Shown: positions 26,512 to 58,762, numbered from the stretch's first letter. The stretch is 64,000 bases of DNA from an uncultured virus (IMG/VR IMGVR_UViG_3300034072_002247) (IMGVR_UViG_3300034072_002247), one strand, 5' to 3'. Made by a program: numbers and translations. The notes: generated from the letters alone by a model not told the origin.

Positions 26512-27288
26512 TTAAAATAAATATATTTTTAATAATTCCCTTGCTGAATCTGATTTTATTACTGATTCTAAATCAAAATGATTTTCTTTAAATAATTTAT
26601 AATCTTTTGCAAAAAAATAAAATATTTTATCTTCATTTGTTGCACAATAATCAGGAAAAACTATATTTTCAAATTTTGATATATATTTTTCTAATCTACT
26701 ATAGTTATATAATTTTAAATTATTTTTATGTTTAAATATCTCTATTTCAATATAACTCTTACTGTTTTTTAAATAATTTTTATTATATATTGATTGTAAA
26801 ATGTTTAATTCTTCTACTTTAAATATATTGTAAACTTTAAAACTTATTGAATTTATTTCATTAAAAAGAACATCTTTAAATTTTATGTTTAAAGATAATT
26901 TAAAATTAAATTTATTTTCATTTATAAATTCTGTAATATAATCTTTTATTACCCCATCTTTTAAATTACTTTTTTCAATATCAATAATTATTTTATTGTC
27001 AGTAAATAAAACCTTTTGTTCTAAACTACTTAAAAAATTATCATTAAATATTTTTTTTAATTCTTTATTGCTTAAAAAATTAGATCTAACATTTTTTAAG
27101 TAATCATCATATTCTTCATATTCTTCATCGCTTAAATCATTTTCAAATGAATAATCATAACATTTATAGCAACTATAGTCACAACAAGAATTATACTCTT
27201 CATCAAAATCATTTATTAAATTTTTTGTTGTATTTAAATTTCTTTTTTGAAATTTTTTATTTTTTATTTGACTTGATAACATTTTCAT
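26512..27288 (-). CDS. hypothetical protein, paralog of 27292-28032
   Basis: acidic Tyr/Asp N-terminus; FPDYCATNEDKIF vs YPEYCESNEEIF. Confidence 0.7.
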   Translation of the reverse strand: MKMLSSQIKNKKFQKRNLNTTKNLINDFDEEYNSCCDYSCYKCYDYSFENDLSDEEYEEYDDYLKNVRSNFLSNKELKKIFNDNFLSSLEQKVLFTDNKIIIDIEKSNLKDGVIKDYITEFINENKFNFKLSLNIKFKDVLFNEINSISFKVYNIFKVEELNILQSIYNKNYLKNSKSYIEIEIFKHKNNLKLYNYSRLEKYISKFENIVFPDYCATNEDKIFYFFAKDYKLFKENHFDLESVIKSDSARELLKIYLF

Positions 27289-27291
27289 ATT

Positions 27292-28032
27292 TTATCCAAA
27301 ATTATATAATTTAAATAAGCTATATATTTCACTATTTTTTATAATATCTTTAACGTAAAAATTATCTAATATTATTTCTTCATTGTTTATTTTTTTTATA
27401 TCAAAGGAAGTTTGTAAAAAATCATACATAAATATTTCTTCGTTACTTTCACAATATTCTGGATACTTATTAAATTTTCCAAATCTTCTTGTTAAAAAAT
27501 CTGTTGTACAATAATCTAAATTTCTATTTTTATTATATCTTTTATTAAAACTATAAAAATCTCTTATGTTCATTTTTTCTAAATGTAAAAATGGATTAAC
27601 CAATATTAAAGAAATTTTGCTTATTTTATTAAAATAAGAATTAGCATATACAAGTTTTAAACCTACATCTAAATTATATTTATTATTTTCTTCAAATGTG
27701 TTTAATATAAAATCTTCTTTATTGTTTATAAAGTCTTCTAATTTTATATCTAAATAGACATCTAATGTATCAATAGACACATCTCTATTATTTCTAATTC
27801 TTTCAATTGCTGAAGGTTTTAATATATTACTTAATATATTTAATGAATTGTAGAACTTTTCTACTATTTCTTTTTGATTGCAATATTCAAATAAATATTG
27901 ATAGGCATAATCACTATAATAATCATCATCATCGTAAAAATCATTATAATAATCATTATTTATATAATCATTATACTCTTTTAATATTTCATTTTTTAAC
28001 TTTCTTTTATTTACTTTATTTTTTTCAAACAT
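27292..28032 (-). CDS. hypothetical protein
   Basis: AGAGGA SD before MFEKNK (28032). Confidence 0.7.
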   Translation of the reverse strand: MFEKNKVNKRKLKNEILKEYNDYINNDYYNDFYDDDDYYSDYAYQYLFEYCNQKEIVEKFYNSLNILSNILKPSAIERIRNNRDVSIDTLDVYLDIKLEDFINNKEDFILNTFEENNKYNLDVGLKLVYANSYFNKISKISLILVNPFLHLEKMNIRDFYSFNKRYNKNRNLDYCTTDFLTRRFGKFNKYPEYCESNEEIFMYDFLQTSFDIKKINNEEIILDNFYVKDIIKNSEIYSLFKLYNFG

Positions 28033-28188
28033 AAAAAATCCTCTATTATATCCAAATAGATTATTATACATAATTAAAAATAAATTTTATTAAAATATGT
28101 ATTTTTTATTGGACTATTGGCTGAAAATTTTTTACATTTTTTTATTTCCTCTTTATTCGTAGTATAATATTTTAATTTTTTCTTTTTG

Positions 28189-31386: not shown

Positions 31387-31415
31387 TTTACATTTAAAAA
31401 AAAATAGTTTATAAT
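31387..31415 (+). promoter_or_regulatory. sigma70 promoter of the argS leader
   Basis: TTTACA-17-TATAAT. Confidence 0.75.
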
Positions 31416-31437
31416 CGCATTTTTAAAAGAGGAAAAA

Positions 31438-31509
31438 TCATGAAGCTCAGACGATTCTAAAATATTTATAAAATTTAAACATATAAACTATTTTAGGAGA
31501 GCATCATGA
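31438..31509 (+). promoter_or_regulatory. translational attenuator hairpin sequestering the argS SD and AUG
   Basis: TCATGA-a-GCTC-[AGACGA bulge]-TTCTAAAATA-TTTATA pairs with TATAAA-c-TATTTTAGGA-GAGC-a-TCATGA. Confidence 0.8.
31440..31460 (+). CDS. argS leader peptide MKLRRF
   Basis: AGAGGA SD; ATG AAG CTC AGA CGA TTC TAA; tandem Arg codons in front of ArgRS. Confidence 0.8.
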   Translation: MKLRRF

Positions 31510-33134
31510 AAAACAACATTATTAAAGATATTAATACTTATCTTTTATCTAAAAATATTAATCAAAATTTTAAACTTATTTATTCAAGTTATGAAGACTT
31601 TCATTATCAAACATCTTTATTATTTAGTTTAAAAAATAATAAAAATTTTGATACTACAGATTTTTTAAATTACTTAAAAAATACAAAAAACTATGATAAA
31701 GTTGAAATTACTGGAAATGGATTTCTTTCATTTAAACTATCAAATTTTTCTTATGAAAATGAAAGCATTAAAAAACAAGAAAAAATAATTGTAGACTATT
31801 GTGGCATAAATATAGCAAAAAAAATGCACATAGGCCATATTCGGTCTATGTTTACTGGTGATTTCTTAGTTCGGTTACACCAATATTTAGGAAATGAAGT
31901 TTTTATTTTTAATCATATTGGTGATTGTGGCAATCAATTTGGTTATCTAATAAATTATATTATTTCCAATGATATTAAAGAATTTAATAGTCAAGAACTA
32001 ACTGAACTTTATAAAAAAGCTTTTGTTAAATATAGTGAAGATGAAAATTTCAAGGAAAATTCTGATTTAATTGCCACTTCTTTACAAAAAAAATCCAATC
32101 TTAAAGTTTTGGAAATTTGGAATAAATGTGTAGAGACTAGTTTAAAAGATCTAGAAAAATTTATTAATCTTTTCTCCTTAAAAATGAATTTAAAAAATGT
32201 TCAAGGTGAAAGTTTTTACTATGACATGTGCAATGATATTGTTGAAGATTTAATATTTAAAAAAATTGTTAAGGTTGATATTGATAATTCAGTTTATTTT
32301 GAATACAAAAATTCTAAAATTGTTTTAAAGAAATCAAATGGTAATTTTTTATATTCAACTTATGATTTAGCAGCAATAAAATGGCGGAAAGACAATATTA
32401 ATCCAGATAAAATATTCTATGTTGTTGATAAACGGCAATCTAAACATTTTGACTTAATTTTTGAAATATCAAAACAAGCTGGGTACTCAAAAAACGTTGA
32501 ATTAATACATGTTCCTTTTGGAACTATAATTGATAAATCAGGAAAGCCACTTAAAACGAAATCAGGAGAGTCTTTATATCTTGAAGATATGTTAAATGAT
32601 GGATATGATGAAATATCTAAATTTGAGTATATACAAAAAATTCCAGAACAGATAAAAAATAAAATGATAAATACCGCATTAATATCAGCATTGAAATTTT
32701 ATGATTTAAAATTTTCTAAGGATAGTGATTATTTTTTTGATTGGAATAATATATTTGATATAAAAGGTGGAACTTCTGGATATATTCAGCAAACTTATGT
32801 TCGGATTGAATCATTAATCTTAAAATCAAACATTGAGTTAGATAATATTGAATTCAATTCTTTAAATTTAAATGACGAAGAAAATTATATTTTATTTAAT
32901 TCTTACAAATTAAAAGAAATAATTGATAATTTTGAAGGATTTCAGAGCAATTTAATAATTAATCAACTTATATATTTATGTGCCATTTTTAATAAATATT
33001 ATGAAAACAACAATATTAATTCAGCAAGTGATAAAATTAATAAATTAAAATTAATTATGAATATTAAAAATAATATAAAATTATCTGGTGATATATTAGG
33101 TCTGACTTTTTATAAACCTTTTAAAACACAATAA
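31506..33134 (+). CDS. argS: arginine--tRNA ligase
   Basis: VDY...NIAKKMHIGHIRS (HIGH), NHIGD.G.QFG, GESFY, Y.TYDLAA, YVVD.RQ..HF, FG......KPLKTKSG. Confidence 0.95.
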   Translation: MKNNIIKDINTYLLSKNINQNFKLIYSSYEDFHYQTSLLFSLKNNKNFDTTDFLNYLKNTKNYDKVEITGNGFLSFKLSNFSYENESIKKQEKIIVDYCGINIAKKMHIGHIRSMFTGDFLVRLHQYLGNEVFIFNHIGDCGNQFGYLINYIISNDIKEFNSQELTELYKKAFVKYSEDENFKENSDLIATSLQKKSNLKVLEIWNKCVETSLKDLEKFINLFSLKMNLKNVQGESFYYDMCNDIVEDLIFKKIVKVDIDNSVYFEYKNSKIVLKKSNGNFLYSTYDLAAIKWRKDNINPDKIFYVVDKRQSKHFDLIFEISKQAGYSKNVELIHVPFGTIIDKSGKPLKTKSGESLYLEDMLNDGYDEISKFEYIQKIPEQIKNKMINTALISALKFYDLKFSKDSDYFFDWNNIFDIKGGTSGYIQQTYVRIESLILKSNIELDNIEFNSLNLNDEENYILFNSYKLKEIIDNFEGFQSNLIINQLIYLCAIFNKYYENNNINSASDKINKLKLIMNIKNNIKLSGDILGLTFYKPFKTQ

Positions 33135-33195
33135 AATTCTATTTTGACTTATTAATATGTAAATGTATTATAATATAAAAACAACACTAAATTTT

Positions 33196-33852
33196 ATGAA
33201 AAATAAATACAGTGGTTTAAGTCTTATAGAGTCAATGTTATCTTTAACAATATTGACTATTATTTCATTATCTTTGATTCAATGGTATTCAACTATTAAA
33301 GAAAAAGAATTAAATAAAAAATTTTCTGACGAAATAAGTCTTATTTTGTATGCCACTGATAGGAGACTTTTTATTGATCAATTTAAAGATAACGATTTTT
33401 CTTACCAAATTTATAATGGTGAAAAAATAAATTTAAATAAAACATTCATTTCTTTTGATAATAATTGTGGTGAAAGTGATGGGTGGAAACCTAAAGGATA
33501 TTCTGATATTTCTTTGATTTCTTGTGGAATGTGGAAAAATAAGATCCCTTATAATCTAAATATTGAGGTAAAAATAAAAAAGAAAAAAGATTATATAACT
33601 AAAGTTTATTATGATTACTCTTTTAAAGAAGAACAACAATATGAAAAATTTAAAGGATTGCTAATAGAACTTAATAAAAACATTAAAAATAATATGGTTC
33701 CATTACATGCTGGTAGCATTAGTTCTTATTTTATAGATGATGAAAACAATAAGATAAACTTAATTGAATGTTCAAAATTAAAAGTTAATTGTAAATTAAG
33801 AACTGAATTTAAATCTTCTCCAGCATTATTATTAGAAGATGAGCTTTTGTAA
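33196..33852 (+). CDS. type IV prepilin-like protein
   Basis: MKNKYSG|LSLIESMLSLTIL class III signal (G at -1, E at +5). Confidence 0.7.
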   Translation: MKNKYSGLSLIESMLSLTILTIISLSLIQWYSTIKEKELNKKFSDEISLILYATDRRLFIDQFKDNDFSYQIYNGEKINLNKTFISFDNNCGESDGWKPKGYSDISLISCGMWKNKIPYNLNIEVKIKKKKDYITKVYYDYSFKEEQQYEKFKGLLIELNKNIKNNMVPLHAGSISSYFIDDENNKINLIECSKLKVNCKLRTEFKSSPALLLEDELL

Positions 33853-33881
33853 TTGACATTTAAAATTAATTAGTTTAAAAT
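33853..33881 (+). promoter_or_regulatory. sigma70 promoter of the tRNA-array leader
   Basis: TTGACA-17-TAAAAT. Confidence 0.8.
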
Positions 33882-33908
33882 ATTCATATATTAAAAAGGA
33901 AAACAGTT

Positions 33909-33956
33909 ATGAAAGACGTAAAACCATTTATAATAGCGAGAGCAAGAATATCTTAA
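33909..33956 (+). CDS. tRNA-array leader peptide MKDVKPFIIARARIS
   Basis: AAGGA SD; codon run ATA ATA GCG AGA GCA AGA ATA before TCT TAA. Confidence 0.8.
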   Translation: MKDVKPFIIARARIS

Positions 33957-34041
33957 TGAGCTAACTCATTGAGAGGGGTTAGCGTGTCTAATCCCTAACT
34001 GCTAGTACAAAGCCTTTGGGGAAATCTCAAAGGCTTTTTTT
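33954..34041 (+). promoter_or_regulatory. transcription attenuator with alternative hairpins
   Basis: 1:2 = 33954-60/33965-71; 3:4 = 33974-82/33988-96; terminator 34009-21/34025-37 + U-tract; alternatives 33960-67/33976-83 and antiterminator 33992-98/34016-22. Confidence 0.75.
34009..34041 (+). terminator. attenuator terminator
   Basis: AAAGCCTTTGGGG-AAA-TCTCAAAGGCTTT followed by TTTT. Confidence 0.9.
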
Positions 34042-34133
34042 ATGCACTAAATGTGCAGGGTATTGTTCAACCCTAAACAATGTAAGTTATTGATTTTAAA
34101 AGAAAAAAAGTTAAAAAATATTTAAAAAAAGTA

Positions 34134-34162
34134 TTGACAAGTGAAAAAAGTTTAGGTAGAAT
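34134..34162 (+). promoter_or_regulatory. second, array-proximal sigma70 promoter with upstream IHF-consensus site
   Basis: TTGACA-17-TAGAAT; reverse-strand AATCAA-TAAC-TTA (WATCAANNNNTTR) at 34083-34095. Confidence 0.7.
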
Positions 34163-34221
34163 ATGTAGTATGAAGAGTTGAGAAAGAAATTAAAAAAATC
34201 AACTTTGAATATTTAATAAAT

Positions 34222-34300
34222 GGGGGCACATGTACCAATGGGCCGGCGAGGAAGGTTTGCACCTTTCCTGTGAAGAGTTCGATTCTCTTTGTCTCCACCA
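34222..34300 (+). tRNA. tRNA-Ala(TGC), atypical D-arm
   Basis: GGGGGCA/TGTCTCC with G3:U70, loop TT-TGC-AC, TTCGATT T-loop, ACCA. Confidence 0.8.
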
Positions 34301-34303
34301 AAT

Positions 34304-34449
34304 TTGTGCTATAGTTATATGTTGGTAAAATAGTTTTTATAGGTTAAAGTTTACAGTTCAATTCTGTATCACTTTATTATAAAGGATAGTTTAATTAGGT
34401 AAAACATTAACCATAGAAAAAGTATGTAGTTCGATTCTACATAGCACAA
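34304..34449 (+). ncRNA. anticodon-less double tRNA-like RNA (two tRNA bodies fused through the anticodon stems)
   Basis: acceptor TTGTGCTA/TAGCACAA; two D-arms with GG loops; two T-arms (TTCAATT, TTCGATT); internal closed acceptor hairpin; 13-bp connector 34334-47/34407-19; no CCA. Confidence 0.75.
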
Positions 34450-34455
34450 TAAAAC

Positions 34456-34531
34456 GGGGTGATAGCTCAGTTGGGAGAGCGTCTGAATGGCATTCAGAAG
34501 GTCGTGGGTTCGAACCCCATTCATTCCACCA
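34456..34531 (+). tRNA. tRNA-Ala(GGC)
   Basis: canonical cloverleaf, G3:U70, TCTGA-AT-GGC-AT-TCAGA, ACCA. Confidence 0.95.
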
Positions 34532-34543
34532 GATTTAAGATAT

Positions 34544-34618
34544 GGGCTTATAGTTTAATTGGGAAAATATCTGCCTTGCACGCAGAAGTTCAGAGTTCGA
34601 TTCTCTGTAGGTCCACCA
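34544..34618 (+). tRNA. tRNA-Ala(TGC)
   Basis: G3:U70, TCTGC-CT-TGC-AC-GCAGA, ACCA. Confidence 0.95.
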
Positions 34619-34623
34619 AATAT

Positions 34624-34700
34624 GTTCGCGTAGCTCAGTTGGATAGAGCAGCCGCCTTCTAAGCGGCTGGTCGTGGGTTCGAATCCCTCCGTGAACGCCA
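34624..34700 (+). tRNA. tRNA-Arg(TCT)
   Basis: GCCGC-CT-TCT-AA-GCGGC, GCCA end. Confidence 0.95.
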
Positions 34701-34702
34701 AG

Positions 34703-34787
34703 TTAAGTTAAAAATATAGGGTCAGAACCTATCTGCTGAATTTTATTAAATTTGGTGGTAATGTAACGGTAAACATATTTAACTTAA
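34703..34787 (+). ncRNA. circularly permuted tRNA-like RNA (T-arm, closed acceptor stem, D-arm order; YrlA-like module)
   Basis: closing stem TTAAGTTAAA/TTTAACTTAA; ATAGG-GTCAGAA-CCTAT; CTGCTGAATTT-TATT-AAATTTGGTGG; TA; ATGT-AACGGTAA-ACAT. Confidence 0.7.
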
Positions 34788-34792
34788 ATTAT

Positions 34793-34869
34793 GGGTCTGT
34801 AGTTCAGTTGGGAGAACGCTTCGCTTGCACCGAAGATGTCATGGGTTCGAATCCCATCAGTATCCACCA
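34793..34869 (+). tRNA. tRNA-Ala(TGC) with a bulged base in the acceptor stem
   Basis: GGGTCTG/CAG-T-ATCC, CTTCG-CT-TGC-AC-CGAAG, ACCA. Confidence 0.9.
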
Positions 34870-34874
34870 GTTAT

Positions 34875-34950
34875 GGGGTTTTAGTTTAATATTGATAAAA
34901 CGCCGGGGTTAAACTCGGAAATGCAAGGTAAACACTTGTAGACTCCACCA
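34875..34950 (+). tRNA. Ala-identity tRNA-like RNA with 6-nt anticodon loop
   Basis: GGGGTTT/AGACTCC with G3:U70 and ACCA; CCGGG-GTTAAA-CTCGG; non-canonical T-loop GTAAACA. Confidence 0.7.
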
Positions 34951-34960
34951 ATTTATATAT

Positions 34961-35035
34961 GGGCTGATAGTTTAATTGGGAAAATCCCTGCCTTGCACGC
35001 AGGAGTTCAGGGTTCGATTCCCTGTTGGTCCACCA
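34961..35035 (+). tRNA. tRNA-Ala(TGC)
   Basis: G3:U70, CCTGC-CT-TGC-AC-GCAGG, ACCA. Confidence 0.95.
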
Positions 35036-35047
35036 GATTTTTTATAT

Positions 35048-35123
35048 GTCCTCTTAGCTCAACTGGAAGAGCAATGACCTTCTAAGTCATAGGTTGTAGG
35101 TTCGAATCCTACAGGGGATGCCA
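35048..35123 (+). tRNA. tRNA-Arg(TCT)
   Basis: ATGAC-CT-TCT-AA-GTCAT, GCCA end. Confidence 0.95.
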
Positions 35124-35128
35124 AATAT

Positions 35129-35203
35129 GGGGATTTTAGTTTAACCGGGAAAACGGCTTGCAAGAGTGAGCAGTCTGTAGTTCAAGTCTACATATCTCCA
35201 CCA
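35129..35203 (+). tRNA. Ala-identity tRNA-like RNA with collapsed anticodon loop
   Basis: GGGGAT/ATCTCC with G3:U70 and ACCA; GCTTGC-AAGA-GTGAGC in place of the anticodon arm; intact D and T arms. Confidence 0.7.
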
Positions 35204-35209
35204 TATAAA

Positions 35210-35284
35210 GGTTCTCTAGCATAATGGTTAATGCACTCCGCTCATAACGGAATGATTCAGGTTCGATTCCTGGGAGAACCACCA
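35210..35284 (+). tRNA. tRNA with CAT anticodon (probably Ile2, possibly Met)
   Basis: GGTTCTC/GAGAACC, TCCG-CT-CAT-AA-CGGA, ACCA; no initiator features. Confidence 0.85.
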
Positions 35285-35290
35285 AATTAC

Positions 35291-35367
35291 GGGACTTTAG
35301 CTCAGTTGGTTAGAGCATCCGACTCATAATCGGCAGGTCGTAGGTTCAAGTCCTACAAGTCCCACCA
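35291..35367 (+). tRNA. tRNA-Ile2(CAT), reads ATA after lysidine modification
   Basis: CCGA-CT-CAT-AA-TCGG anticodon arm as in enterobacterial tRNA-Ile2, GGGACTT/AAGTCCC, ACCA. Confidence 0.9.
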
Positions 35368-35385
35368 TATTTTTTGGAGATATTT

Positions 35386-35919
35386 ATGAAATTTCCTTAT
35401 ATTCCACCACTTTCAATAGATGAATTCTTAAAGTTAGATTCTGATAATATAACTATTCTTGAAAATAAAGAATTAATTTTAAAAATAGAAAAAAGATCTT
35501 TATATATTTTTGAAAGAATATCTCAAATTTTAAATTTAAATTTTAGTTGGGTAACTTTTGATACTATTGATTTAGAAAGACATAAAAATGAAAATAATGG
35601 AACTTTTTCTTATAATAAATATAAAGATTATATTTCTTTCTATAGTGATCTTGAAGAATTAGAGCACTTAAACAAAATTATTGATGTTTATTACAATAAA
35701 TTTCCTACTAAATTTATATATGAAAATTTTGAGAATGAAGTTTTAGAAACTATATCTAAAATTAAAAAATCAATTGAAGAAAAAAAAGAAAGAAACAAAA
35801 AAAAGAGAATAAAAGAAAAACAAAATAAAATTGAAAGAGATAAAATTAGACCAGAAGTTATTGCTTCTATAAAATCCAAATTAACAGAACTTGAACTTTC
35901 TTTTATTGATTTTAAATAA
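35386..35919 (+). CDS. hypothetical protein inside the tRNA array
   Basis: GGAG SD before ATG at 35386; C-terminal coiled coil. Confidence 0.7.
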   Translation: MKFPYIPPLSIDEFLKLDSDNITILENKELILKIEKRSLYIFERISQILNLNFSWVTFDTIDLERHKNENNGTFSYNKYKDYISFYSDLEELEHLNKIIDVYYNKFPTKFIYENFENEVLETISKIKKSIEEKKERNKKKRIKEKQNKIERDKIRPEVIASIKSKLTELELSFIDFK

Positions 35920-35928
35920 ATACGTTAT

Positions 35929-36004
35929 GTCCATATAGCTCAACAGGAAAGAGCAACTGCCTCCTAAGCGGAAGATATAGGTTCGAGTCCTATTATGGAT
36001 GCCA
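35929..36004 (+). tRNA. tRNA-Arg(CCT)
   Basis: CTGC-CT-CCT-AA-GCGG, GTCCATA/TATGGAT, GCCA end. Confidence 0.9.
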
Positions 36005-36068
36005 TTTAAATTAATTGACTAAATTATTCTTTTACCATATAATACTTTTTATAAAAATGGAGAATTAT

Positions 36069-36515
36069 ATGGCAGAAAGAAATTATGTAAATCCAAAAAG
36101 AGTATATTTTGATATGGATGGTGTTTTAGCTGATTTTGAATTAGAAGCTGAACAACGTAATGTCACCTTTAAAGAACTTAAAAATATGATAGATGCTTAT
36201 AGACATCTACCCATTATGGATGGGGCTAAAGATGCTGTTAAGCGATTTATTGATTCAGGTTATGAAGTATTTATTCTAACTAAAATTCCTAGCAAAAACC
36301 CTTATGCAGCAACTGAAAAAATATTTTGGCTACAGGATAATTTTCCAGAAGTAGGAGATCATATAATTATTTCTCCAGATAAAGGTGCTTTAGGTCAACC
36401 CGGTCATATTTTAATTGATGATCACCCTGAATGGGCTAATGCTCATAATTTTAAGGGGCAAGTTATAAAGTTTGAAAGAAACTGGAATAAAGTTTTTGAA
36501 TTAGCTGGAATTTAA
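36069..36515 (+). CDS. HAD-family 5'(3')-deoxyribonucleotidase (NT5C-like)
   Basis: YFDMDGVLADF, EK..WL, ILIDD; GGAG SD before ATG 36069. Confidence 0.85.
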   Translation: MAERNYVNPKRVYFDMDGVLADFELEAEQRNVTFKELKNMIDAYRHLPIMDGAKDAVKRFIDSGYEVFILTKIPSKNPYAATEKIFWLQDNFPEVGDHIIISPDKGALGQPGHILIDDHPEWANAHNFKGQVIKFERNWNKVFELAGI

Positions 36516-36520
36516 TTACA

Positions 36521-36545
36521 TAAACCACATTAAAATGTGGTTTTT
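36521..36545 (+). terminator. intrinsic terminator
   Basis: AAACCACAT-TAAA-ATGTGGTTT followed by T-tract. Confidence 0.75.
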
Positions 36546-36558
36546 ATTTGGAGAAAAA

Positions 36559-37386
36559 ATGAAAAGATTAGAACATGATAGTAATACTTTAGAAGAAGTA
36601 ATACAATATTTTCAAACACGAGCTAGGCAACTCATTTCTGAAGGATTTGTTTGGCAAAAGGTTGTTTTACCATTTGAAAATTCTTATTATACTTATTTTA
36701 AAAAAAATAATATAAAATATCTTTCAATATATATTACAGTTCAAGATAGAGGTAAAGGACTCTATAAAAAAATATTATCACAGTTTAATTATCCTATAAT
36801 TACAGTAAATGATTGTAATATTGTAAATTATTTAGAAAACAACAATATTGAACACATCGTATGTTGTGAATTCTTGGATACTTTAGAATATAAAATGATT
36901 CAGAACTTTTATGCAGACCAAAAAGCAGAACGTAGTAAATGTTTCTTAATGAATCATATTGATGAAGGTTTGTTTATTTTAAATGCTATTAATGCAAGTA
37001 TTGAAGCAAAAAAAGCATTCTGTATTCATCCTTTAGTACAAGATGATACAGCTTTAAAATTAAATTGGGATATTGTTAAAAATAAAATTGACCCTGAAGT
37101 CCTTTCTCTTGCTATGGAATATAGAAATATAGCTAATGCTTATCTATCTCACAGAGAAATAAAATCTATTTCAGATATTAAACTAAGTCCTATAGAAGAT
37201 GTAAATGATATGTTAATTGCAGATAAAGTTCAAAATTATAAAGATTTCTTAATTTATCATGCTAATACACATCCTAGAAAAGAAATATTAGATCAATATT
37301 TTAAAAATTGGCTACAAGTATTAAATATATCTAATGATTTTTTCTATTCTCTATCTAAAGAATTAGAATCAATAGAAATATTATAA
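36559..37386 (+). CDS. GNAT-like remnant fused to divergent HD-like (RelA/Mesh1-type) domain
   Basis: RGKGLY; AERS....NHI, CIHP..QDD, IADKVQN. Confidence 0.5.
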   Translation: MKRLEHDSNTLEEVIQYFQTRARQLISEGFVWQKVVLPFENSYYTYFKKNNIKYLSIYITVQDRGKGLYKKILSQFNYPIITVNDCNIVNYLENNNIEHIVCCEFLDTLEYKMIQNFYADQKAERSKCFLMNHIDEGLFILNAINASIEAKKAFCIHPLVQDDTALKLNWDIVKNKIDPEVLSLAMEYRNIANAYLSHREIKSISDIKLSPIEDVNDMLIADKVQNYKDFLIYHANTHPRKEILDQYFKNWLQVLNISNDFFYSLSKELESIEIL

Positions 37387-37444: not shown

Positions 37445-38425
37445 ATGAAATTATACAAGCTAAATTTAGTTAAATTAAAAGTCATACAAAATAGTATAGA
37501 TAAAGAAGAACAATCTATTCAAAATTTAAAATTTCAAATTAAAAAATATTATCATATTGATGTATTAGAAAAATTAGGCATTAATAAAATTTATATGTCT
37601 ACTGAAGATTTGGATTTCAACTTTTATTTAACTGAAGACCAAATTAAAAAAATAAATTTATTTGCAAAATTAAATAGTGGATTTAATTTATCATTTGATG
37701 ATTTACCATTTAAAGAAATTAATAACTTCAAAGAATTTGAATATTCAAATAAAAATGATTTACCAAAAATAACTACTTTATATAAAGAATTAGATCAAAT
37801 TAAAGATTTATACTTTGATTCTGAAAGAAATCAACGTAAAACTATAAATAAAGAACGTGTAGAAAAATTTGGTAAACTAAATAATTCAATTGAAGGAAAA
37901 AAAATAATTTCAATAGATTTTGAATTTAATCCTAATAACATTGTAGATAAATATGATTTAAGTTTTATATCAGAAGTAGGTATTACAACTAATTTTAATG
38001 GTAATATAGAATCAAAACATTTTATAATTGATGAAAATAAAAAATCAAAATCAAAAGAATTAGGTTTTTTATATGGAGAAACAGAAAGTATTAATACAAA
38101 TGATATTAAAAAAATTCTTAATAACGAACTTAAAAATGCAGATATATTAATTTTACATAGTTTCCATGCTGAATTAAACTTTCTTATTGATAACTCAATT
38201 GAACATTCACATTTAGATATTTTAGATGTTCAAATATTATATAAAAATTATATTGATAATGGAAATGAAGATCTTAAAAAGCTATCAAAAATACTTCAGG
38301 GATTAAATATTGATTACGGTTTCTTACATAATGCTGGTAATGATGCTTATTACACTCACGAAGCATTTGTAAAAATATTAGATAAAATTAATTTCAAGAA
38401 AAAAAACACATTCAAAATCAAATAA
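37445..38425 (+). CDS. DEDDh exonuclease-domain protein
   Basis: SIDFEF, SEVG, HNAGNDAYYT. Confidence 0.8.
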   Translation: MKLYKLNLVKLKVIQNSIDKEEQSIQNLKFQIKKYYHIDVLEKLGINKIYMSTEDLDFNFYLTEDQIKKINLFAKLNSGFNLSFDDLPFKEINNFKEFEYSNKNDLPKITTLYKELDQIKDLYFDSERNQRKTINKERVEKFGKLNNSIEGKKIISIDFEFNPNNIVDKYDLSFISEVGITTNFNGNIESKHFIIDENKKSKSKELGFLYGETESINTNDIKKILNNELKNADILILHSFHAELNFLIDNSIEHSHLDILDVQILYKNYIDNGNEDLKKLSKILQGLNIDYGFLHNAGNDAYYTHEAFVKILDKINFKKKNTFKIK

Positions 38426-39570: not shown

Positions 39571-41499
39571 ATGAAAGATAACAATATTGTTTCTAAATTA
39601 CAAAAAGAACAAGCAGTAGAAAATTTTAAAAAATGGTTTGGAAATAGTCAAATAATAAATAGTTCTGGAGAACCAGAAATTGTTTATACAGGTACTTTAT
39701 CCGATTTCACTGTTTTTGATTACTCAAAATCTAACAATCAAAATTTTTTCGGTAAAGGTTTTTATTTTAGTAGTTCTATTGAAGATGTTAACTCAAATTA
39801 CGCAACGGTAAAAGGGCCAGATTTTGAAATAAAATATGATAAAATTAAAGAAAACTTTTTCAGAATCATGGAAGGATATGATGAATTCAATAAAGAAGAT
39901 ATAGATTATTTTATATCTTTATCTAACAACAAATCTATTGAACAACCAATTTTGTCTGCTGTTCAAAAACTTTTAAGTTGTATAGATGAAGTTGAAGATT
40001 ACAGTGAGATGACAGAAGAAGAAATGGACTTAATAAGTACTAAATACATAAATGATAAACTATCAGTTGATAACCAAGGATTTATTATACCAGCATATAT
40101 AAAGATGGAAAACCCTTTAAGAGTTGATCATGACTTTTTAGAGAAAGAAGAAAAAATATCTGGTCAAGAATTTGAAAGAATTCTTTCTAAGTTTGAATCT
40201 TTATTTAATTTTGATAAATCAGCTTTATATAACGAGTTCTATCACCTTTTTTCAGATATAAATGAAGAATATTCTATTGAGTTTGATGAATTTGAAGAAA
40301 TAGCAGAAAATTTCAGACATTATATATTTGAAGAAGATGAAGATACATATGAAGAAAAATATTTAGAATTTATAAATTTTGCGAGAGATGTATTTGACTC
40401 AGATTACATTAATATAACATATGAACTAAATGGCTCTCTTATTGAATTTAAAGACAGATTTAAAAGAAAACTACAAGATTTGGGATTCTTTAATGAAGCA
40501 GACAATTTCGAATCTTTATTTTCTGAGAAATATTTAATTGAAGAAACTGTTTATGTTAGAGATATATTAAAAAATGAAGATATAGATATGTTAATAATGG
40601 ATCTATTTCCTATGGATAATCAATTTGATAATGATTGTTTCATATATAAAGGATTATGTGCAGCTATATTTCAAGAAATGGGTTATGATGGAATTATTCA
40701 AGAAGCATTTAAAGAGTTTAAAACAATGAAAAACATTTCAGAGGCTTATCATTATATTGTTTTTAACAGTAATAACATAAAAAGTGCTATAGGAAATAAT
40801 GGTGAATATTCTTTAACTGATAATGATATTAGATATAGAATTAATTATAGAATGCAAGAAGATTATCGTAAGAAAATTTCCGTCAATACTAAAGATTGCG
40901 AAAAAATAATTAAAGATATAAAAGAACAATATTCAAGTTCTCCAAATATTATTTTAATAAAAAATAAATTAGAAATTGATAAAGAACTTTTAAACCAGCA
41001 TAAAGATATTTTAAATAGCTCTGGATATTATTTAAAAGAAAAAAATTCTGTCTATATAATGCTAGAGAATATAACTGGAAGAAAAGACTTTATTAAGACT
41101 ATAGCTCATGAAATTTTTGGGCATATGAGTTTACAAGAAATTTTAAAAAATAACTATACACCATTTTTAAATAAAGTTTATGATTTTTATGATAAAAAAG
41201 GATTACTAGAAGAAGAGAAAAAACATTACTCTTCTATATATGGAAATAATTTTAACGACATAAATATTAAATCTAAAATTGCTGAAGAAAAAATGGCTAA
41301 TGTAATTGAAGAACAAGGTTTTAAAAATTTTCCACTTAAAAATGTAATTATAGGAGCAATAAAAAACTCTTTAAGAAAATTATTACCTAATATTCCATTT
41401 GGTAATAGTGATATAATTTATATTGCTCAACAAACTCATAATAATTTAAAGAAGAAAAATAAAAAGGAAAATAAAATAAAAAATAAAAACCGCTTTTAA
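39571..41499 (+). CDS. polyvalent protein: ART-PolyVal-like domain with acidic insert + zincin-like metallopeptidase
   Basis: NFKKWFG.S....GEP.IVY.GT, GKGFYFS, GYDGII, YIVF....IKSA.GNNG; AHEIFGH...EE. Confidence 0.7.
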   Translation: MKDNNIVSKLQKEQAVENFKKWFGNSQIINSSGEPEIVYTGTLSDFTVFDYSKSNNQNFFGKGFYFSSSIEDVNSNYATVKGPDFEIKYDKIKENFFRIMEGYDEFNKEDIDYFISLSNNKSIEQPILSAVQKLLSCIDEVEDYSEMTEEEMDLISTKYINDKLSVDNQGFIIPAYIKMENPLRVDHDFLEKEEKISGQEFERILSKFESLFNFDKSALYNEFYHLFSDINEEYSIEFDEFEEIAENFRHYIFEEDEDTYEEKYLEFINFARDVFDSDYINITYELNGSLIEFKDRFKRKLQDLGFFNEADNFESLFSEKYLIEETVYVRDILKNEDIDMLIMDLFPMDNQFDNDCFIYKGLCAAIFQEMGYDGIIQEAFKEFKTMKNISEAYHYIVFNSNNIKSAIGNNGEYSLTDNDIRYRINYRMQEDYRKKISVNTKDCEKIIKDIKEQYSSSPNIILIKNKLEIDKELLNQHKDILNSSGYYLKEKNSVYIMLENITGRKDFIKTIAHEIFGHMSLQEILKNNYTPFLNKVYDFYDKKGLLEEEKKHYSSIYGNNFNDINIKSKIAEEKMANVIEEQGFKNFPLKNVIIGAIKNSLRKLLPNIPFGNSDIIYIAQQTHNNLKKKNKKENKIKNKNRF

Positions 41500-42982: not shown

Positions 42983-43909
42983 ATGGAAAGGTTAGTGCAG
43001 TCATATTCTATAAGAGACATTAGAACAAAAATTTTCAATAAACTTTCTTTAAAAAATAGAAATGATATTGCTAATTATATTTCCATTAAAAACTTATACA
43101 GTGAACTTCAGATAGATGAATATTTAATAGAACCTGAGTTAAATGATTGTTTTATCAATGTCATTGATTTTGTAAAGTTAATTACTTTTATTAATTTAAA
43201 ACATAATTCAAATATTAGATTAACAGATTTTAAAAGTCATGAAAATAATCACAATTCTTTTACTAAAATAAAAAATATAGATGAAGCTTTATATCTTGAT
43301 GTGACTTTTAACTATATATTTTCAAGACCTAACTTAAACTCAACAATTAATAACATATTTAAAGAAGATATAAAAATAGGTAAAACTGTAGTTTCTTTCG
43401 ATTTTTCTTTTAATCAGTGTTATGATATAGTAGATTTGGGTATATCATATTACAATGGCAAAATAAGAAAAGACTATCATTACTTAGTAAAAGAGAACTT
43501 ACCAAATAAATTTTCAGATAACAGTAATTATTTATCATTTCATTTTGGAAAAACTGAAATAAAATCCTATGATAAATTAATAAATATACTTTCAGCTTTT
43601 ATTCAACAAGCTGACATTATACTTTTACATGACACTTCCAATGATTTAAAAGCTTTACATAAAGTTAATCTAGATACTTTATTAGAAAACAAAAAAGTAA
43701 TAGACACTTCTCTTATTTTTAAAATTGAAGACAATCATTTAATAGTAAAAGACACCTCTAAAAGAACGAGTTTAAAAGATCTATTAAAGTTTAGTAATAT
43801 TCCTTATAGCAAACTTCATAATAGTGGAAATGATGCTACTTATACTTTAAAATTATTTATTAAAAACTTTAATAAAATAAAAAAATACTCAAAAGTCTTT
43901 TCTAATTGA
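42983..43909 (+). CDS. DEDDh exonuclease-like paralog, motif I Glu replaced
   Basis: SFDFSF, DLG, HNSGNDATYT; paralog of 37445-38425. Confidence 0.75.
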   Translation: MERLVQSYSIRDIRTKIFNKLSLKNRNDIANYISIKNLYSELQIDEYLIEPELNDCFINVIDFVKLITFINLKHNSNIRLTDFKSHENNHNSFTKIKNIDEALYLDVTFNYIFSRPNLNSTINNIFKEDIKIGKTVVSFDFSFNQCYDIVDLGISYYNGKIRKDYHYLVKENLPNKFSDNSNYLSFHFGKTEIKSYDKLINILSAFIQQADIILLHDTSNDLKALHKVNLDTLLENKKVIDTSLIFKIEDNHLIVKDTSKRTSLKDLLKFSNIPYSKLHNSGNDATYTLKLFIKNFNKIKKYSKVFSN

Positions 43910-55213: not shown

Positions 55214-58200
55214 TTAATCCATATAAACTCTTAATGTTTGACCAGCTCTTGTACTTAAACCTGTAACACAATTATCATACTGATATGAATCACCATATAT
55301 ATCAAAAATACTTCCTGTTTGGTTACATCTTACACCATTAATATATATTTGTTTATTTGAATAAAGACCATCTGGAGTCCCTGTTGGGAATACTAAATTA
55401 GTATTGTAAACTACTTCATATAAGCTTACTATTTCATATCCACTATAAATATAACTAGATAAAGCGCCTGCTAGTTGTGCAGACCAACTACTTCCACCCG
55501 GAGCATCTTTGATATATCCAAAAGCGTAAAGATTATAATAGCTAGTATAGTATTGTCCTATATATAAATTTCTTAAGTTTCCTACACCTACTATCATATT
55601 TTGAGCAGCAGATGTTCTTGTAACTCCATTTAAAGTTTTAGTTGCACTAAAAGAATATGTATATTCACCTATTAATGATGGTGCATTATTTGGAACATTC
55701 TCTACTAGTGTTGCGCCACTTGATAATGTAGCTGATGGATTTAAAACAGCCGATTTAGAAACATTTATAAATGAACTTGTAGAATTTATAGTTGGATTTG
55801 ATATAGTAGGATCAGATTCAACTATTACATTTCTTGTTGTTGTTGAAGTTACACCAACAGAGTTTGTTGCAGTTATTGTATAAGTGTAAGTTCCTGCTGC
55901 TGTCGGTGTAATATTAACGGATGTCGCAGTTCCTAAATCAACGTCAGTAGTTGAAATTCCTGAAGCAGCAGAGTTGGATCTTATTTTATAATTAACTGCA
56001 TCTGAAGCACTATAACTCATTGTAAATGCAGCATTAGCGAATACGTTACTTGGCGCTGTTGTTGCTCCAAATACTGGTGCTGCTATAACATTTACAACAA
56101 CACTTCTTAATGTGCTAAATCTTGAAACAGAGTTTAAAGATTTAGTAGCAGCAGCATAATAAGTGTAAGTACCAGCAGTTGCTGGTGCTGCACTTGGTAA
56201 TGTTGCATTTGTAGTGTTTCCACTGTCTCTGCCTTGTAATGTTGCACCAGTGCTAAAACCTGAACCAGCAAATGTTAATGCAGCACTTGGTGAAACATTA
56301 ATATTAGTTCCAGCATTTACTGTAAATCCAGTAAATGTTGGATTTGCTTCTACTGTTACGTTTCTTGTTGTAGTTGTAGTTACTCCAACGTTGTTAGTTG
56401 CAGTTATAGTATAGGTATAAGTTCCTGCGGCTGTTGGTGTTATATTAGTTGAAGTAGCAGTTCCTAAATCAACATCTGTTGTAGCTACACCAGAAGCTGC
56501 TATATTTCCACGAATCTTATAATTAATAGCATCACTAGCACTATAAGATAAAGTAAATGCCGCATTAGCAAATACATTGCTTGGTGCTGTAATAGTACCA
56601 AATACTGGAGCATCGATTACATTTACAACAACGTTTCTTAATGCACTATATCTTGAAACGGAGTTTAAAGATTTAGTTGCAGCAGCATAATAAGTGTAAG
56701 TACCAGCAGTTGCTGGTGCTGCACTTGGTAATGTAGCATTTGTTGTATTTCCACTGTCTCTACCTTGCAATGTTGAACCAGAACTGAAACCAGTACCGGC
56801 AAATGTTAATGCTGCGCTTGGTGAAACATTAATATTAGTTCCAGCATTTACTGTAAAACCAGTAAATGTTGGATTTGCTTCGACTGTTACGTTTCTTGTT
56901 GTAGTTGTAGTAACTCCAGCAGAATTAGTTGCTGTTATTGTGTAAGTGTAAGTACCTGCTGCTGTTGGAGTGATGTTAGTTGAAGTAGCAGTTCCTAAAT
57001 CAACATCAGTAGTAGCTACACCAGAAGCTGCTAAGTTACCACGAATTTTATAATTTACTGCATTACTTGCACTATAGCTCATTGTAAATGCAGAATTAGC
57101 AAATACATTGCTTGGTGCTGTAATTGTTCCAAATACTGGAGAAGCAATCACATTTACTACAACGTTTCTTAAGGCGCTATATCTTGATATAGAGTTTAAA
57201 GATTTAGTTGCAGCAGCGTAGTAAGTATAAGTACCAGCAGTTGATGGTGCTGTCGCTGGTAGTGTAGCATTTGTAGTATTACCACTGTCTCTACCTTGTA
57301 ATGTAGCACCAGAACTGAAACCACTTCCAGCAAATGTTAATGCTGCGCTTGGTGAAACATTAATATTAGTTCCACTATTTACTGTAAATCCAGTAAATGT
57401 TGGATTTGCTTCTACAATCACTGTTTTAGTTGAATCAACTTTAGCATTTGCAGTGTTATATCCACTTAAAGTGTAAATGTAAGTTCCAGAATTTGTTGGA
57501 GTTGTGTTAGTGTTTAAAGAACTTCCTAAATCAACGGCTGTAGTTGGTATTCCAGAATCTGCATTATTAGATTTTATTTCATACTTTGAAACACCAGTAC
57601 CAATCCAAGATAATGTTAATGGAGAATTCGCAAAAACAATATTAGGGCCTGTAAATGAATCAATAACTGGTAATCCTACAACATTAACAGATAATGACTG
57701 ACTTACAGAATCACCGGCACCATTAAATGCTTCTAAAGTATATTGTGTAGTACCAGTAGTTGAAGATGCAACTAAATTTGTTGTTGTTTCGTTTATAATA
57801 TTTCCATTTAACTTGTAAGATACTGCATCTGAAACATCCCAAACGAAATTTAATGGGTCGTTTGGTGAAGCATCAATAGTAGTAGAACTTCCATTAATAG
57901 TGTATGAGTTAATAACAGCCTGATTATATACATTTATATTAATTGGACTAGAAGAAACAATTGTTCCATTTAAACTTGTTGATTCCAAAGTGAAATCAAA
58001 ACTTCCTGAATTATTAAACGTAATGTTTTGAGAGCCAGTAGGAATACCAGAAACAGAACCATATGGATTTAAATTTAATCCTTCAGAATCAGTCACATCC
58101 CAGCTAAAAGAAATTGAATCACCTTTGGTTATATTTAATTCAGATGCATTAAATGAATTTATAACAGAGTTATTTACAACATCAATAGTTAAATATTCAG

Positions 58201-58762
58201 TTGCATCTGCAATTCCTTCATAACCTTTTGCATTCAATCTAAATGTTGTATCAATTGTAGGATATACATCTAAATTTCCTGATAATGGTAATCCTGTACC
58301 GACTCCATTATCTATGTCAACATATTCAGCATTTTCAACATTCCAAGATAAATTAACTGGCTGACCTATGCCAATTCTTAATTTATCCGCATTAAAGGTA
58401 ATATTTTGGTTTGGTTGTATAACAGTTAAAAATAAATTTTCAATTTTCTTTTGAGAACCTTTTGTTACTTCTATTTCATAGTTTCTTGATGCTAAAGGAG
58501 ATAATGTAATAGAGCCAACTTTTCCATATTTACCTAGACCTTTTATATCAACTTCATTGGCATAATCATAATTCCAAGATAAAGTGGAAGAACCACCACG
58601 ATTTATAGAGTTAGGTGATAGAGAAATATTCCCATTGATGGGAGTTTCTTCCATTATAATTCCTTTTGGATCTAATGGAATAATTATTTGATAATCAGCA
58701 TAAGCAAAGTTAGCAAAAAAAATTGCTATATATAACTTTTTTATTTTTATATTAACTTTCAT
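55214..58762 (-). CDS. large secreted Ig-like repeat adhesin/fibre protein
   Basis: signal peptide ending FAYA; Thr/Ser/Ala/Gly-rich beta repeats (GTYTYT.TA.N); distinct aromatic C-terminal tip with two Cys. Confidence 0.8.
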   Translation of the reverse strand: MKVNIKIKKLYIAIFFANFAYADYQIIIPLDPKGIIMEETPINGNISLSPNSINRGGSSTLSWNYDYANEVDIKGLGKYGKVGSITLSPLASRNYEIEVTKGSQKKIENLFLTVIQPNQNITFNADKLRIGIGQPVNLSWNVENAEYVDIDNGVGTGLPLSGNLDVYPTIDTTFRLNAKGYEGIADATEYLTIDVVNNSVINSFNASELNITKGDSISFSWDVTDSEGLNLNPYGSVSGIPTGSQNITFNNSGSFDFTLESTSLNGTIVSSSPININVYNQAVINSYTINGSSTTIDASPNDPLNFVWDVSDAVSYKLNGNIINETTTNLVASSTTGTTQYTLEAFNGAGDSVSQSLSVNVVGLPVIDSFTGPNIVFANSPLTLSWIGTGVSKYEIKSNNADSGIPTTAVDLGSSLNTNTTPTNSGTYIYTLSGYNTANAKVDSTKTVIVEANPTFTGFTVNSGTNINVSPSAALTFAGSGFSSGATLQGRDSGNTTNATLPATAPSTAGTYTYYAAATKSLNSISRYSALRNVVVNVIASPVFGTITAPSNVFANSAFTMSYSASNAVNYKIRGNLAASGVATTDVDLGTATSTNITPTAAGTYTYTITATNSAGVTTTTTRNVTVEANPTFTGFTVNAGTNINVSPSAALTFAGTGFSSGSTLQGRDSGNTTNATLPSAAPATAGTYTYYAAATKSLNSVSRYSALRNVVVNVIDAPVFGTITAPSNVFANAAFTLSYSASDAINYKIRGNIAASGVATTDVDLGTATSTNITPTAAGTYTYTITATNNVGVTTTTTRNVTVEANPTFTGFTVNAGTNINVSPSAALTFAGSGFSTGATLQGRDSGNTTNATLPSAAPATAGTYTYYAAATKSLNSVSRFSTLRSVVVNVIAAPVFGATTAPSNVFANAAFTMSYSASDAVNYKIRSNSAASGISTTDVDLGTATSVNITPTAAGTYTYTITATNSVGVTSTTTRNVIVESDPTISNPTINSTSSFINVSKSAVLNPSATLSSGATLVENVPNNAPSLIGEYTYSFSATKTLNGVTRTSAAQNMIVGVGNLRNLYIGQYYTSYYNLYAFGYIKDAPGGSSWSAQLAGALSSYIYSGYEIVSLYEVVYNTNLVFPTGTPDGLYSNKQIYINGVRCNQTGSIFDIYGDSYQYDNCVTGLSTRAGQTLRVYMD
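55826..57418 (-). repeat. three tandem 531-bp (177-aa) coding repeats
   Basis: GATTTGCTTC anchor recurs at 56341, 56872 and 57403; boundaries approximate. Confidence 0.9.

Follow-up and report, generated by a model that had tools for sequence, protein, structure and literature searches.

Why phages carry transfer RNA (tRNA) genes, be it for codon compensation or for escape from tRNA-cleaving defences, is a question of 50 years' standing, on which the locus described here would bear if our reading of it is right. In a stretch of 64,000 nucleotides (nt) from an uncultured virus (IMG/VR record IMGVR_UViG_3300034072_002247; the whole stretch is referred to as the window, and positions are counted from its first letter), an array of Ala, Arg and CAT tRNA genes is preceded by a promoter (P1), a 15-codon open reading frame (ORF), two hairpins and an intrinsic terminator (T1). 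This raises the question of what a miniature ORF and a terminator do in front of tRNA genes. Leader-peptide attenuation is a textbook mechanism, and an initial annotation of the locus had proposed an attenuator whose control codons match the tRNAs that it precedes. We consider that the unit from P1 to T1 is probably a his/thr-type attenuator, in which a ribosome on a leader-peptide ORF controls transcription of the tRNA array. The sequence features, their statistics and their folding in silico are what we show; that the leader is translated, that antitermination takes place kinetically, that polymerase reads on into the array and what sets off the switch are inferred. Attenuation as such is well established, and what would be new is its target, tRNA genes.

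The leader and its control codons

The promoter, the Shine-Dalgarno (SD) sequence, the ORF, its codons and the array were found as first described, with one correction: a TCT codon lies between the control run ATA ATA GCG AGA GCA AGA ATA and the stop codon TAA (33954-33956). Strong sigma-70-type promoters are real signals in this genome, since 23 of the 26 matches to at least 11 of the 12 consensus positions fall in the 13% of the window that is intergenic. The first ATG with an SD (33909) is located 27 nt past the -10 box of P1, and the real plus-strand genes of the window have 20-34 nt at this place.

All seven consecutive codons of the control run can be decoded by the Ala, Arg and CAT tRNAs encoded 270 nt downstream, and the presence of Ala codons in it is in keeping with the unusual Ala bias of the array. 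A count of codons from the set ATA, GCN, AGA and AGG over the six reading frames of the window showed the control run to be the sole run of at least six, the next longest comprising five. The chance expectation is a mean of 0.03 runs of at least seven per window, and any such run occurred in two of 60 first-order Markov simulations. Single codon matches carry little weight because ATA, AGA and GCA are common in this genome, with shares of 47% of the Ile, 85% of the Arg and 45% of the Ala codons, respectively. The leader was found among very many windows that had been read, so that some codon coincidences are to be expected somewhere; the folding tests described below are independent of the codon count.

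Competing folds of the leader RNA

Folding of the RNA stretch 33889-34045 gave a succession of three hairpins (z = -3.68; none of 200 shuffles folded as well), which we denote A:B, C:D and, for the terminator T1, E:F (Table 1); a three-hairpin layout is his-like. The stem of T1 begins behind the two other hairpins, 52 nt past the stop codon of the leader ORF and 157 nt past that of the pilin-like gene upstream, and the other terminators in the window start 0-34 nt past stop codons. Two alternative helices, both built of standard pairs, compete with this cascade. The first, B':C, excludes both leading hairpins, and the second, the antiterminator D:E, takes up 34011-34013 and 34016-34020 of the 5' arm of T1. 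Hairpin cascade, terminator and alternative pairings lie at the positions given in the initial annotation, except that A:B is longer, with 10 base pairs (bp) instead of the seven claimed. The energies of A:B, B':C, C:D and E:F resemble the values of the trp leader.

Modelling of the ribosome position

The effect of the ribosome position was modelled by equilibrium folding of truncated transcripts, not by kinetics, with the nucleotides covered by the ribosome masked. Under a stall mask that reaches to 33956-33959, B':C is the minimum free energy (MFE) structure for transcripts ending at 33983-33987, and B':C together with D:E is the MFE structure for transcripts ending at 34022-34030 (-21.7 to -22.2 kcal/mol). 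This combination remains the MFE structure until the 3' arm of T1 is transcribed. When the mask was moved to the stop codon and thus covered the RNA up to 33968, C:D was the first to form.

The dependence on stalling was expressed as a switch score, defined as the energy advantage of folds pairing the 5' arm of T1 at transcript end 34025, stall minus stop mask. The score of the leader is -7.3 kcal/mol, a value reached by none of 400 dinucleotide shuffles of 33960-34008 (mean 0.23, standard deviation 2.2). Moving the ribosome codon by codon gave -5.4 (AGA), -8.7 (GCA) and -10.1 kcal/mol (AGA) with these codons in the A-site, and -1.2 to -3.3 kcal/mol at all other codons including the stop. Codons with an advantage of -5 kcal/mol or better were always situated within the seven-codon run, over footprints of +10 to +17 nt. 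The profile is like that of the Escherichia coli thrL leader, which served as positive control and yielded -13.7 at its Thr/Ile control codons and 0 at the stop in the same calculation.

Proposed mechanism

RNA polymerase would start at P1 or arrive from the upstream operon of the arginyl-tRNA synthetase (ArgRS) gene, and a ribosome would translate the 15-codon leader. Upon quick decoding of ATA, GCA/GCG and AGA, the ribosome would reach the stop codon within A:B and cover segment B', so that C:D and then the terminator E:F could form and transcription would end at 34041. Upon slow decoding, it would pause on the last codons of the run, covering A and leaving B' free to pair with C; the released segment D would then pair with the 5' arm E of the terminator, and the polymerase would read through P2, a second promoter between T1 and the first tRNA gene, into the array. 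The predicted outcome is a feedback loop that provides more tRNA when the cognate codons are read slowly, the array encoding their decoders, and P2 would supply a basal level independent of the switch. Candidate triggers are a shortage of these decoders in the host, their insufficient charging, and host nucleases that cleave them. If this reading is true, a virus can gauge, one codon at a time, how well its host decodes, and can top up only the tRNAs that it lacks, and leaders of this type would constitute compact, portable sensors of specific tRNA availability.

Alternative explanations

Several observations weigh against an attenuator. The full-length leader at equilibrium keeps the terminator under all eight ribosome masks (pair probability 0.999-1.0), and any antitermination must therefore be kinetic, as it likewise is in the trp leader; the constrained folding that mimics ribosome coverage yielded the antiterminator chain foreseen by the initial annotation in truncated transcripts, but at equilibrium the terminator always won. 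The core of D:E is far weaker than T1 (-6.4 versus -16.1 kcal/mol) and covers the upper part of its 5' arm, not the base. The effective window of ribosome positions takes in only approximately three of the seven control codons, and the switch score was devised after the pairings had been seen, is compared with shuffles that destroy the native hairpins, and has a single positive control. That ATA, AGA and GCA, which are common codons of this genome itself, are read slowly in the host is an assumption. With regard to the array, a likeness to tRNA-Ile is assigned to one CAT tRNA (35291-35367), the other (35210-35284) being a CAT tRNA of no assigned identity. No close relative with leader DNA was found in searches of IMG/VR, metagenomes and contigs. 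Finally, P2, which the initial annotation had already pointed out as a caveat, does lie after T1 and equals P1 in its consensus match, so that the array does not depend on read-through, which can only add to a basal level. What stands, in silico, of the proposed attenuator with tRNA-matched codons is its anatomy, the codon run and the stall-dependent fold, but not an array that relies on the switch.

The position of P2 behind T1 and the equilibrium result under all masks would also be expected if P1, the 15-codon ORF and T1 were a small gene in its own right, coding for a micropeptide or giving rise to a structured small RNA, if P2 alone drove the array and if the codon match were a coincidence. 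This explanation, which we regard as unlikely, stays alive because short independent genes exist in the window: two small genes on the minus strand (19857-19702 and 18429-18216), encoding 37 and 57 amino acids (aa), have their own promoter-like site and terminator, a further point against the attenuator. In these two genes, however, the terminator follows the stop codon at 19-21 nt, whereas T1 is 52 nt away with two additional hairpins. A coincidence would furthermore have to place a codon run expected 0.03 times per window exactly here, and to bring about both a switch score that no shuffle reached and effective codons that coincide with the run.

Less probable still is that T1 is mainly the terminator of the operon of the ArgRS and pilin-like genes and an insulator shielding P2, the mini-ORF and the hairpins being features of a 3' untranslated region (UTR) without any sensing. 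Indeed, from the ArgRS gene through the pilin-like gene up to T1 no other terminator is present, and a distant relative (IMG/VR record G002) also has a terminator, followed by promoters, before a tRNA array. Nevertheless, a distance of 157 nt from the pilin-like stop codon, with a strong promoter in between, is at odds with the usual 0-34 nt, and the SD-led ORF, the codon run and the alternative pairings would be left without explanation. Termination of the operon is also compatible with the attenuator, which would gate the read-through of the upstream operon as well.

A role of the inverted repeats (GCTAAC..GTTAGC and TCTTAATGAG..CTCATTGAGA) as repressor operators or as elements of RNA processing or stability would suit their being near-perfect palindromes in the DNA. 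It is very improbable, given that the repeats are poorly positioned for operators at 60-110 nt downstream of the start of P1 and about 150 nt upstream of P2, that neither recurs in the window, and that the codon run would again be left without explanation.

Comparison with known regulatory leaders

The attenuator reading draws on the hisL, thrL, trpL, ilvL, leuL and pheL leaders of E. coli and Salmonella, which likewise have a promoter, an SD-led mini-ORF, a run of control codons near the ORF end and a stop codon at the first hairpin, followed by helices that exclude one another, the last being an intrinsic terminator. In contrast to these attenuators of amino-acid operons, the targets here are tRNA genes instead of enzymes, the genome is phage-like, and a second promoter follows the terminator. 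The control codons also differ in mixing three amino acids and in being the very codons that the downstream tRNAs read. Feedback of decoding or charging onto genes of the translation apparatus is likewise exerted by the pheM leader of pheST and by T-box leaders. The pheM leader controls a synthetase, not tRNAs, and T-box RNAs work without a ribosome, by direct contact with uncharged tRNA. In scans of 33000-37000 (E values up to 1) and of the complete window, tRNAs were the only Rfam matches, and no T-box was among them. The statement in the initial annotation that no attenuator of this kind had been described agrees with our full-text literature searches, which returned no account of leader-peptide attenuation controlling tRNA genes.

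tRNA sets of phages are well known; Stx phages, for instance, carry the ileZ-argN-argO set for rare codons. The array described here shares Ile2-like, Arg-TCT and Arg-CCT tRNAs with such sets, and the genome also encodes a fusion of polynucleotide kinase-phosphatase (Pnkp) and RNA ligase. Phage tRNAs are also reported to counter host defences that target tRNAs (PMC10264068). Such reports cover the tRNAs and not a transcriptional control that senses decoding, and the Ala-rich composition of the present array is unusual.

A similar arrangement in phiCbK-like phages

A comparable order of elements is present in cultured phages. The deposited annotation of the Caulobacter phage phiCbK (NC_019405) lists predicted terminators directly before three tRNA blocks. 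At 4300-4510, a TTGACA-type promoter-like site is followed by an ORF (MSKTYRQFVRQIQVVRNI...), a terminator and a block of Phe/Val/Ile/Ile/Val/Gln/Gln tRNAs, and nine of the 12 codons at positions 7-18 of the ORF can be decoded by tRNAs of this block. The unit of promoter, leader and terminator is kept in BL57, Rogue, CcrBL10 and CcrSC, covering three genera, with synonymous substitutions, a 3-nt indel that preserves the frame and, in the terminator of CcrSC, three compensatory pairs. In CcrSC, the leader has additional Val and Asn codons and precedes a block with Asn and Arg(ACG) tRNAs. The phiCbK leader itself retains Arg and Asn codons although its block is devoid of these tRNAs, which are present in the blocks of relatives. 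In front of the Pro/Lys/Leu/Ser block of phiCbK, 21 of the 44 codons after the gp335 start codon are cognate to the tRNAs of the block. The terms 'attenuat' and 'leader' are absent from the searched passages of the phiCbK genome paper.

Common to the phiCbK-like phages and the window are a promoter, a short ORF in which codons read by the tRNAs behind it are enriched, and a terminator directly before tRNA genes. Unlike the window, in which P2 follows T1, no strong second promoter was noticed in phiCbK, for which no dedicated test was made; the two leaders share no sequence similarity, and that of phiCbK is longer (32 codons). By analogy, the phiCbK family supports the existence of such a class in cultured phages and does not prove the instance reported here. 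Tentatively, and with less confidence than we place in the attenuator itself, we propose that large phages possess a regulon of translation-supply genes, here the tRNA array and the ArgRS gene, each under its own codon-matched stall sensor, that these sensors may monitor the availability of tRNAs, including their loss to host nucleases, and not amino-acid pools, and may turn on replacement tRNAs as needed, and that together with the phiCbK leader they may represent a widespread unpublished class. Caulobacter and phiCbK would offer a tractable system for this class.

A mini-ORF upstream of the arginyl-tRNA synthetase gene

The ArgRS gene, two genes upstream of the leader, is preceded by an SD-led mini-ORF of its own, which encodes MKLRRF. 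Its 5' UTR forms a long hairpin (z = -5.17; none of 200 shuffles was as good), in which the SD and AUG of ArgRS are sequestered by pairing with the mini-ORF and both Arg codons lie in an internal loop. The predicted probability that the region from SD to AUG is unpaired is 0.07 in the free RNA versus 0.58-0.70 with a ribosome on the mini-ORF. This modelling suggests that slow decoding of the Arg codons may raise translation of ArgRS, and the MKLRRF mini-ORF is a candidate for stall-dependent translational control of a phage-borne synthetase. As a second codon-matched mini-ORF in the window, it also speaks for the attenuator reading of the tRNA leader. Opening of a hairpin that masks SD and AUG by a ribosome on a short ORF is likewise the principle of the ermC and cat leaders, examples of stall-dependent translational attenuation. 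Unlike in the ermC, cat and speF leaders, the signal proposed for MKLRRF would be the decoding of two Arg codons before an ArgRS gene.

The protein collection searched includes homologues that are 97% and 54% identical to this ArgRS. A relative whose ArgRS is 44% identical has neither the mini-ORF nor a tRNA within 6 kb of the gene (locus L123). A literature search on argS leaders returned only the leader ORF with Arg codons of Salmonella speF (PMC6386406).

The tRNA array

Table 1. Positions of the leader elements, the tRNA array and further features in the window.
Feature	Position	Strand	Remarks
Promoter P1, TTGACA-17-TAAAAT	33853-33881	+	11/12 consensus; begins one base past the stop of the upstream pilin-like gene
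SD of the leader ORF, AAGGA	33896-33900	+	8 nt before ATG; spacing like neighbouring genes
Leader ORF, MKDVKPFIIARARIS	33909-33956	+	15 codons plus stop
Control run ATA ATA GCG AGA GCA AGA ATA	33930-33950	+	Sequence unique in the window
Hairpin A:B	33951-33960/33965-33974	+	10 bp, loop CUAA, -11.2 kcal/mol; stop codon in 5' arm
Hairpin C:D	33975-33982/33988-33995	+	8-9 bp; -9.6 kcal/mol, -11.3 kcal/mol with ninth pair; unique in the window
Alternative helix B':C, GCUAACUC/GGGUUAGC	33960-33967/33976-33983	+	8 bp, -10.8 kcal/mol; excludes A:B and C:D
Antiterminator D:E, UCCCUAA/UUGGGGA	33992-33998/34016-34022	+	7-bp core, -6.4 kcal/mol, plus inner 3-bp helix
Intrinsic terminator T1 (E:F)	34009-34041 (stem 34009-34020/34026-34037)	+	12-bp stem, loop GAAAU, U run, -16.1 kcal/mol
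Promoter P2, TTGACA-17-TAGAAT	34134-34162	+	11/12 consensus; A-rich upstream stretch; between T1 and first tRNA
tRNA array	34224-35367	+	Only Ala, Arg and CAT tRNAs plus tRNA-like genes
Two decayed AT-rich tRNA relics	34310-34449
Two tRNA-like genes	34875-34947, 35130-35199		Ala-type G3:U70 acceptor; abnormal anticodon loops
ORF inside the array	35386-35919	+	177 aa
tRNA-Arg (CCT)	35929-36004	+	Last gene before promoter P3 (36015-36043)
ArgRS upstream element	31387-31508	+	Promoter (31387-31415), mini-ORF and long hairpin
Mini-ORF MKLRRF, ATG AAG CTC AGA CGA TTC TAA	31441-31461	+	SD-led; +24 from promoter
ArgRS gene	31506-33134	+	PF00750 (2.6e-66), PF05746; two genes upstream of the leader
Pnkp-RNA ligase fusion	2678-5035		785 aa; full-length match to phrog_8238 (1e-157)
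ClpB-like ATPase			phrog_4871 (2e-236)
1182-aa ORF	55214-58762		Virion structural protein matches

The array is a tRNA cluster in a phage-like genome and matches the codon preference of this genome for ATA, AGA and GCA. It begins with an imperfect Ala-TGC gene and two AT-rich relics, followed by Ala-GGC, Ala-TGC, Arg-TCT, an Ala-TGC with an imperfect acceptor and a tRNA-like gene with an Ala acceptor, and continues with Ala-TGC, Arg-TCT, a second Ala-acceptor tRNA-like gene, a CAT tRNA and a further, Ile2-like CAT tRNA. Together with the downstream Arg-CCT, the clean tRNAs are two Ala-TGC, one Ala-GGC, two Arg-TCT, one Arg-CCT and two CAT; the imperfect Ala-TGC genes at 34224 and 34793 bring the Ala-TGC total to four. 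The CAT tRNA at 35291-35367 has its best match, over the full length and with 82% identity, in E. coli genes annotated as tRNA-Ile. A unit of 417 nt with Ala-TGC and Arg-TCT is tandemly duplicated. With its duplication, imperfect genes, tRNA-like genes and relics, the array (34224-35203) is evolving by birth and death. For the ORF of 177 aa inside the array, Pfam and PHROG searches gave no match, and an Atlas search gave nothing usable.

Relatives and public reads

An ArgRS protein search of IMG/VR yielded no relatives, and exact leader and tRNA patterns found nothing or unrelated arrays only in the same database. Candidates obtained by other routes were rejected: a metagenome scan with a GC-rich tRNA word returned eight unrelated contigs of 52-65% GC, the 80 loci found in contigs by means of an ArgRS alignment shared only 24-32% identity, and two IMG/VR relatives recognized by the ORF at 36535-37386 (50% and 41% identity) have their tRNA arrays elsewhere and no ArgRS. 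In the record G002 mentioned above, an Arg/Glu/Ser-rich ORF with an (AGCTCC)n repeat (8996-8796, minus strand; locus L038) is located between two strong promoters and directly precedes the first tRNA (Cys) of a 27-tRNA array.

Contigs from four public runs were compared with 33100-36600. Each of the four has near-identical contigs over parts of the array. The same or a nearly identical sequence is thus present among public contigs from several habitats. Array variants were seen among public contigs, some being without 34307-34452 and some having 417 other letters between 34701 and 34958. Among the contigs listed, the only one over most of the leader (run X7, 33600-33957) is identical to the window; another X7 contig matches from 34030 onward only, and 34168 is where one of the X4 contigs ends. 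The metatranscriptome X18 has contigs of 206 and 257 nt that extend across tRNA spacers and none over the leader, an absence that is uninformative as contigs show no transcript ends and the library may include DNA.

Genome setting

Pfam and PHROG searches revealed a phage-like gene content of the 64-kb window that resembles a very large phage. The GC content is 18-36% per 2-kb bin and mostly about 22%. The ArgRS protein of the window is recorded from a contig of 1,042,066 nt; the element may belong to a phage-like genome of approximately 1 Mb, or to an island carried by an AT-rich chromosome.

The 785-aa protein encoded at 2678-5035 joins kinase, phosphatase and T4-type RNA ligase 1 domains in one chain, which are the parts of the T4 tRNA repair pathway. 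This Pnkp-RNA ligase fusion is consistent with a genome under pressure from tRNA damage. Further domains in the window are dCMP deaminase, Sir2, RNase H, NUDIX and ART-PolyVal. Adjacent ORFs of 258 and 259 aa (26512-28071, minus strand), both rich in N, Y and D, of similar layout and without a family match, are probably paralogues. The ART-PolyVal ADP-ribosyltransferase domain belongs to a 642-aa protein (39571-41499), on either side of which two paralogous DEDDh-type exonucleases (PF21762) are encoded at 37445-38425 and 42983-43909.

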